Source: Antedon mediterranea (Eukaryota > Animalia > Echinodermata). Taken from it: DNA of 64,000 nucleotides. The position numbers were made by a program, and so were the translations under genes. A model generated the notes under the pieces. That model worked only from the letters and a program-made list of their open reading frames with translations. It was not told the DNA's origin and ran no database searches. The stretch's first letter is position 1; each line of letters starts with the position of its first letter. The stretch is from the NCBI RefSeq assembly GCF_964355755.1, contig NC_092671.1, positions 31,382,304 through 31,446,303 of the forward strand, read 5' to 3'. Shown here one piece after another: positions 1,063-1,104 of this stretch.

Positions 1063-1104
<42 letters not shown>
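1063..1104 (+). other. Ectopic 42-bp exact copy of the 28S H69/R2-target region in IGS 1
   Basis: AGCGCGGGTAAACGGCGGGAGTAACTATGACTCTCTTAAGGT is identical to 28S 9131-9172. Confidence 0.97.

Follow-up and report, generated by a model that had tools for sequence, protein, structure and literature searches.

An exact copy of the R2 target site in every rDNA spacer of an Antedon mediterranea array, probably a captured landing site

Why should every intergenic spacer (IGS) of a ribosomal DNA array carry an exact piece of the 28S gene that ends where the retrotransposon R2 nicks its target? The question is raised by 64,000 nucleotides of Antedon mediterranea DNA (the window), which proved to be tandemly repeated eukaryotic rDNA: Rfam annotation shows six complete 28S genes, six 5.8S genes and the starts of seven 18S genes. 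All six complete 28S genes are uninterrupted, at about 3684 bp each. The units are spaced 9455-9493 bp apart, with a single exception of 11047 bp, and just 39 substitution columns were found when six whole units were compared. From the 28S end onward, the spacer consists of about 117 bp of unique sequence, a 9-mer array with 9-12 perfect copies depending on the unit, a 51-bp linker, the 42-bp piece of 28S, a further 15 bp, a run of 27-28 T residues, pentamer satellites and subrepeats of 290-320 bp (Table 1). The T run is likely a Pol I release tract. A duplicated subrepeat block makes the spacer at 29266-34083 some 1.56 kb longer than its counterparts, and in the last spacer (59259-62307) the 5' external spacer region is shortened by about 195 bp and the 9-mer array has a smaller number of copies. 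After the last subrepeat, a TATA-plus-G-run motif at 3612-3625 resembles the arthropod rDNA promoter consensus quoted in an excerpt of PMC2048585, and is likely the Pol I start. A bacterial promoter and terminator scan, of a type unsuited to Pol I, returned nothing above chance.

Table 1 Features of the window and 28S pieces in foreign spacers. Positions refer to the window except where a foreign spacer is named; signed numbers are relative to the R2 nick in 28S.
Feature	Positions	Strand	Remark
28S gene, first complete unit	6605..10288	+	Rfam
Genuine 28S source site, empty	9131..9172	+	Further sites start at 18624, 28108, 39155, 48628 and 58101, all empty
9-bp tandem array, upstream of 42-bp copy	904..1011	+	12 copies in unit 1
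Unique pyrimidine-rich linker	1012..1062	+	No significant rRNA-gene likeness on either strand (P 0.81, 0.055)
Spacer copy of 28S -41..+1, unit 1	1063..1104	+	Predicted R2 nick between 1103 and 1104
RUM (-34..-22) within copy	1070..1082	+	13/13 identical to 28S
RASIN (-6..+1) within copy	1098..1104	+	Fits TTNANNT; essential T+1 is the last base of the copy
Right junction, 15 bp	1105..1119	+	Likeness to 28S +2..+15, P 0.08-0.15
T27-28 run	1120..1147	+	
Spacer copy, unit 2	10556..10597	+	Exact match
Spacer copy, unit 3	20049..20090	+	Exact match
Spacer copy, unit 4	29533..29574	+	Exact match
Spacer copy, unit 5	40580..40621	+	Exact match
Spacer copy, unit 6	50053..50094	+	Exact match
Spacer copy, unit 7	59508..59549	+	Exact match
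Foreign piece, L003	spacer 669-733	inverted	28S -27..+35; 86% identity
Foreign piece, L004	spacer 147-188		28S -11..+31; 81% identity
Foreign piece, L015	spacer 244-285		28S -13..+29; 93% identity
Foreign piece, L018	spacer 619-662		28S -8..+36; 84% identity

The 42-mer has 13 exact plus-strand matches and no mismatched ones in the window, and none was found in 100 shuffles. Seven of these matches lie in spacers and six in the complete 28S genes, which bears out the claim of an earlier sequence-only reading that every IGS holds a 42-mer identical to 28S (7/7 spacers, exact). The copy lies 249-276 bp after the 28S end in all seven spacers, and its span is indeed -41 to +1 of the R2 site, as that reading had stated, when the nick is placed as in the excerpted text of PMC10499050. 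Identity to 28S ends abruptly on both sides, the sequence leaving 28S at +2. No other word of at least 13 nt is common to the first spacer and the genes on the same strand, and homology beyond the 42 bp was not significant either upstream (P 0.14-0.76) or downstream (P 0.08 and 0.15). Likewise, six spacer segments compared with the rRNA genes on both strands gave no significant local match (lowest P 0.055). Seven nucleotides that span the nick (1099-1105) recur 12 bp further on at 1111-1117 (P about 0.006, post hoc), a possible scar of cutting and repair or of template slippage. Structured RNA around the copy was considered and rejected (fold z 0.81), with the helix-69 hairpin alone visible.

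The boundaries of the copy were then read against what is known of R2 target recognition. R2Bm, the silkmoth element, contacts its target from -38 to -7 and requires two motifs, RUM (-34 to -22) and RASIN (-6 to +1); a change of T+1 abolishes cleavage, single changes at the other positions from -6 to +5 are tolerated, and nicking and TPRT remain normal after replacement of the dispensable +6 to +37 (PMC10499050, in excerpt). The spacer copy is identical to this canonical 28S target from -41 to +1 and holds both motifs at their native spacing, so that the proposal that it keeps the known R2 determinants stood; it differs in lying in non-coding spacer and in lacking the 28S bases from +2. Because it has both R2Bm motifs and ends on T+1, the spacer copy is a predicted R2 substrate for first-strand nicking, under motif rules that come from R2Bm and may not be those of the R2 of this lineage. 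Without 28S sequence from +2, 3'-homology-assisted priming and top-strand cleavage could differ at the spacer copy. The 18S of the array looks echinoderm-like, and R2 has been reported from Echinodermata (PMC5035012 and PMC13188248, both in excerpt). Other elements also insert close by, as the TTAA target of Pokey is 4 nt from the R2 site (PMC3315735, in excerpt) and R1 inserts 60 bp downstream of it (PMC2718515, in excerpt), which makes this 28S region a shared hot spot.

All 13 sites in the window are empty, the seven in spacers as well as the six in 28S genes. One unit contains ten stop-to-stop frames of at least 120 aa, the longest of which (302 aa) is antisense to 28S; an element ORF in the window was rejected by frame length (at most 302 aa) and position.

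The sequence-only reading had proposed that the host maintains the copy as a decoy. In its fuller form, copy-bearing units would be favoured as R2 binding, nicks and insertions are diverted to non-coding DNA behind an intact 28S gene, and we regard this selected decoy or safe harbour as a tentative alternative. An element inserted there could stay co-transcribed, given the sense orientation of the copy before the T run, and could free itself by self-cleavage using the 28S leader bases; nicks in the spacer could drive rDNA amplification without breaking 28S. The copy fits the functional footprint of -38 to +1 (PMC10499050, in excerpt) and includes the bases from -9 to -36 that many R2 ribozymes pair (PMC3774820, in excerpt). 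It is fixed at 1:1 in 7/7 units, it lies in sense ahead of the T run, and R2 breaks are described as driving rDNA copy recovery in Drosophila (PMC10266012, in excerpt). Against selection stand the lack of any occupied spacer site (0/7) and the 1:1 ratio, which would at most halve the hits on 28S. The invariance of the 42-mer, which had been taken as a sign of selection since IGS drifts fast, did not survive comparison with its surroundings: the unique flanks have 0/115, 0/51 and 0/14 variable sites over the seven units and the copy has 0/42. As the flanks are as invariant as the copy, invariance within the array is uninformative on selection, and we rejected it as evidence.

Three further explanations were weighed against the immediate surroundings of the copy. 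The first concerns the junctions that R2 itself leaves. Upstream-28S duplications at R2 5' junctions are usually 13-28 nt long and come with added 28S-like bases, and the upstream 28S carried on R2 RNAs measures 9-36 nt, with ribozyme cleavage at -9 to -36 (PMC3774820, in excerpt). The spacer copy is similar in being a short upstream-28S copy that ends at the R2 site with added junction bases; however, the junction duplications described in that text are shorter and directly adjoin an element within the 28S gene, whereas here 41 nt of upstream sequence lie about 1.4 kb from the gene site with no element. The copy might be a fossil junction of a lost element, integrated into the spacer as the 28S leader with which an R2 cDNA begins or as a 3' tail derived from 28S. 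Such 3' ends are described for some R2 families (PMC5035012, in excerpt), and the right edge of the copy is at most 1 nt from the nick. The left edge at -41 nevertheless lies beyond every cleavage site in the excerpt of PMC3774820, and the 15 bp, T run and satellites that follow leave no room for a ribozyme or UTR. Downstream, no HDV-like ribozyme, R2 UTR or sense poly(A) was found, with Rfam giving rRNA only; a sense poly(A) tail would not read as T on this strand, the fold of the region is unremarkable, and it would be awkward for an element to vanish entirely while the 28S copy next to it stayed exact. A fossil junction is therefore unlikely.

Another possibility is an element in the other orientation, of which the copy would mark the tail junction next to the R2 site, with the T run as poly(A) on the other strand. 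The first T of the run lies 16 bp past the copy, and a hexamer resembling a polyadenylation signal is found a few bases beyond the run on the minus strand. Nevertheless, the copy and the T run are 15 bp of non-28S sequence apart, nothing but satellite repeats follow, the candidate hexamer sits in AT-rich DNA, and the presence of a 28S piece in the spacer would be left unexplained. We consider this antisense origin highly improbable.

The copy might also bind a Myb-type terminator protein of the host and have been recruited to terminate Pol I or to block replication forks, by analogy with Reb1 and TTF-I. Its position 249-276 bp after 28S, between the short-repeat array and the T run, would suit such a role, and one 8-bp word within it (1067-1074) is found again at 890-897, some 104 bp past the end of 28S. 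We take this word to resemble a Myb-type terminator core. The recurrence of this 8-mer does not reach significance (P 0.09), an 8-bp site has no need of 42 exact bases, and the upstream part that holds it is missing in 3/4 of the foreign copies described below, so that a terminator origin appears very unlikely.

For a view beyond this array, we searched metagenome contigs for a 20-nt motif taken from the 3' end of 28S, which gave 29 loci. The 28 loci with a spacer of at least 50 bp were kept (40 kb in total; L029 was dropped), with the reservations that three pairs each represent one organism or two nearly identical ones (L002/L024, L006/L022 and L008/L025), that L026 is doubtful rDNA, and that all are short-read contigs in which repeats may be collapsed. 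When these spacers were compared with the LSU, SSU and 5.8S of the window, a strong 28S piece of 42-65 bp was found in 4/28, and all four pieces straddle the R2 nick (Table 1). No other internal rRNA piece was present in the 28 spacers, the remaining hit being the true 18S start in L023, and a search with the LSU sequences of seven loci themselves revealed no further pieces. Shuffled spacers gave 0.05 hits per run at E<1e-3. With about 1150 LSU positions taken as conserved enough for detection, four pieces would all cover the nick by chance with a probability of about 2e-6 if they are independent and 2e-3 if only two are. Captured rRNA pieces in the spacers of other organisms thus show a strong site bias.

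The four foreign copies have flanks with no mutual likeness, and the copy in L018 has the variant base of L018's own 28S. The unlike flanks and the one inverted copy indicate separate captures at the DNA level. The L015 copy is absent from L001, a locus 99% like L015 at the 28S end and with an alignable spacer; together with identities of 81-93%, this absence points to repeated capture followed by decay and turnover. Three of the four copies still fit the RASIN consensus TTNANNT, and this, with the recurrence at one site in other spacers, speaks for the decoy; a recognisable RUM is left in just one (L003, 10/13 matches), and the decay and turnover speak against it. Given the foreign decay and the absence from a near relative, capture and drift fit at least as well as selection, and the claim of host maintenance is not supported.

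The foreign copies all belong to one clade apart from that of the window (4/15 spacers; five of these 15 were assigned on 90-nt identity alone, and the clade is left open in the tree). We take this clade to be nematode-like. The window's lineage has four distant relatives in the set as its closest loci (83-84% identity, three of them distinct), and none carries a copy; the seven loci of a third clade gave no strong hit. The pieces overlap the R2 nick like the window's copy and lie about 150-730 bp after the 28S end, but unlike that exact copy they are diverged, one of them is inverted, and their right ends at +29 to +36 set their frame about 30 bp downstream. The other clade and the shifted frame make the foreign copies analogues rather than homologues of the copy in the window. 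R4 inserts midway between the R2 and R1 sites. The right edges of the foreign copies are presumably near the R4 insertion position, a position not found in the literature searched, and the pieces are possibly copies of an R4 target.

Several weaker observations were made in the same set. Gapped likeness to the same 28S region was seen in L014 (spacer 128-207, p 0.02) and L005 (608-671, p 0.01), which were left uncounted as they stand among 24 spacers without a strong hit tested with 100 shuffles each; these matches may be older decayed copies or chance. Beside its copy, the L015 spacer has subrepeats at about 205-480 with a word like a reverse-complemented helix-69 arm (best p 0.02), as if it were a fold-back of the same site. 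In L010, L021 and L024 the LSU is interrupted about 5 bp before the R2 nick and again at a site farther along, by insertions several hundred bases long that are probably group I introns; the spacers of these three loci carry no copy. Rfam on seven loci identified rRNA alone and no lineage marker. Scans with the 28S-end motif gave two chance bacterial matches in genome contigs and none in viral contigs. Among sequencing runs, four from one sample contain 0.77-0.95 of the words and may be the source of the assembly, whereas a second sample of organism A contains 0.51, organism B 0.56 and organism C 0.23; these fractions do not bear on the presence of the copy in the spacers concerned.

A precedent for such a copy exists. 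The IGS of Drosophila ananassae carries a 22-bp copy of the R1 site of 28S, and units with that copy hold one R1A and seven R1B elements, the copy being reported as an exception among non-28S insertion sites (PMC2718515, in excerpt). The most natural reading of that passage, which does not state it outright, is that these eight elements sit in the spacer copy itself. The two cases are alike in that a short 28S piece matching the insertion site of an element lies within the rDNA spacer, and the suspicion of the sequence-only reading that such pieces may already be reported from invertebrate IGSs was thereby justified. They differ in that the D. ananassae copy is of the R1 site and 22 bp long, with the share of units carrying it not given in the passage of PMC2718515, whereas here an R2 site of 42 bp is exact in 7/7 units and none of these units contains an element. 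No description of an R2-site spacer copy was found in a search that covered main texts, mostly recent and open-access ones, while many IGS descriptions are in older and subscription papers and junction tables in supplements could bear on the point; it is absent from the excerpted texts of PMC13580325, PMC10946416, PMC2048585, PMC7650587, PMC5035012, PMC13188248 and PMC6895275. The spacer copy is real rather than a chance match, and of a kind already known yet barely described.

Taking these results together, we favour, at a probability of roughly 55%, the explanation that the 42 bp are a captured R2 landing site, a by-product of rDNA retrotransposons that was spread by concerted evolution. The 28S hot spot is where site-specific elements would nick and reverse-transcribe, and this activity would account for capture at the R2 nick. 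Template jumping or break repair would occasionally place short pieces of the hot spot in the spacer close by, and one copy-bearing unit would then have swept the array by concerted evolution, recently enough for the copy to stay exact. With RUM and RASIN intact, R2 protein would be expected to bind and nick the spacer copy; a cut of this sort may have left the 7-nt duplication at the nick as its scar. If the copy protects 28S at all, this would be incidental and not the demonstrated reason for its fixation.

Several points weigh against a captured landing site. None of the 13 sites is occupied, and the long frames of the window reach at most 302 aa. The copy stops at the last essential base and begins 3 bp past the -38 contact edge, and with edges that match the footprint in this way a selected unit predicts the boundaries better than random capture does, although the match at +1, taken by itself, would arise one time in four. 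The support from foreign spacers comes from a single other clade with its frame shifted, and the loci nearest the window's lineage show no copy. Furthermore, the motif rules are those of R2Bm, and R2Tg recognises upstream DNA differently (PMC12222951, in excerpt).

The selected alternative can be extended into a general proposal, which we hold to be doubtful: animal spacers may repeatedly fix the 28S target of a resident element as a safe harbour that draws nicks and insertions off 28S, with R2 here, R1 in D. ananassae and probably R4 in the nematode-like clade. Under this proposal the element would stay transcribed and the host would gain a harmless break point for recovery of rDNA copy number.

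How R2 has lasted for hundreds of millions of years although the array would be expected to purge it is described as an open question in a 2026 review (PMC13580325, in excerpt). A second natural target in each unit, outside the coding gene, would allow insertions to be counted at paired sites within one array, and such counts would separate target choice from selection against broken 28S genes. Within the literature reached, the only printed mention of a capture bias to one site is an aside of two sentences on R1. Selected copies would represent host defence or accommodation at the level of sequence; neutral ones would still record where rDNA elements cut.
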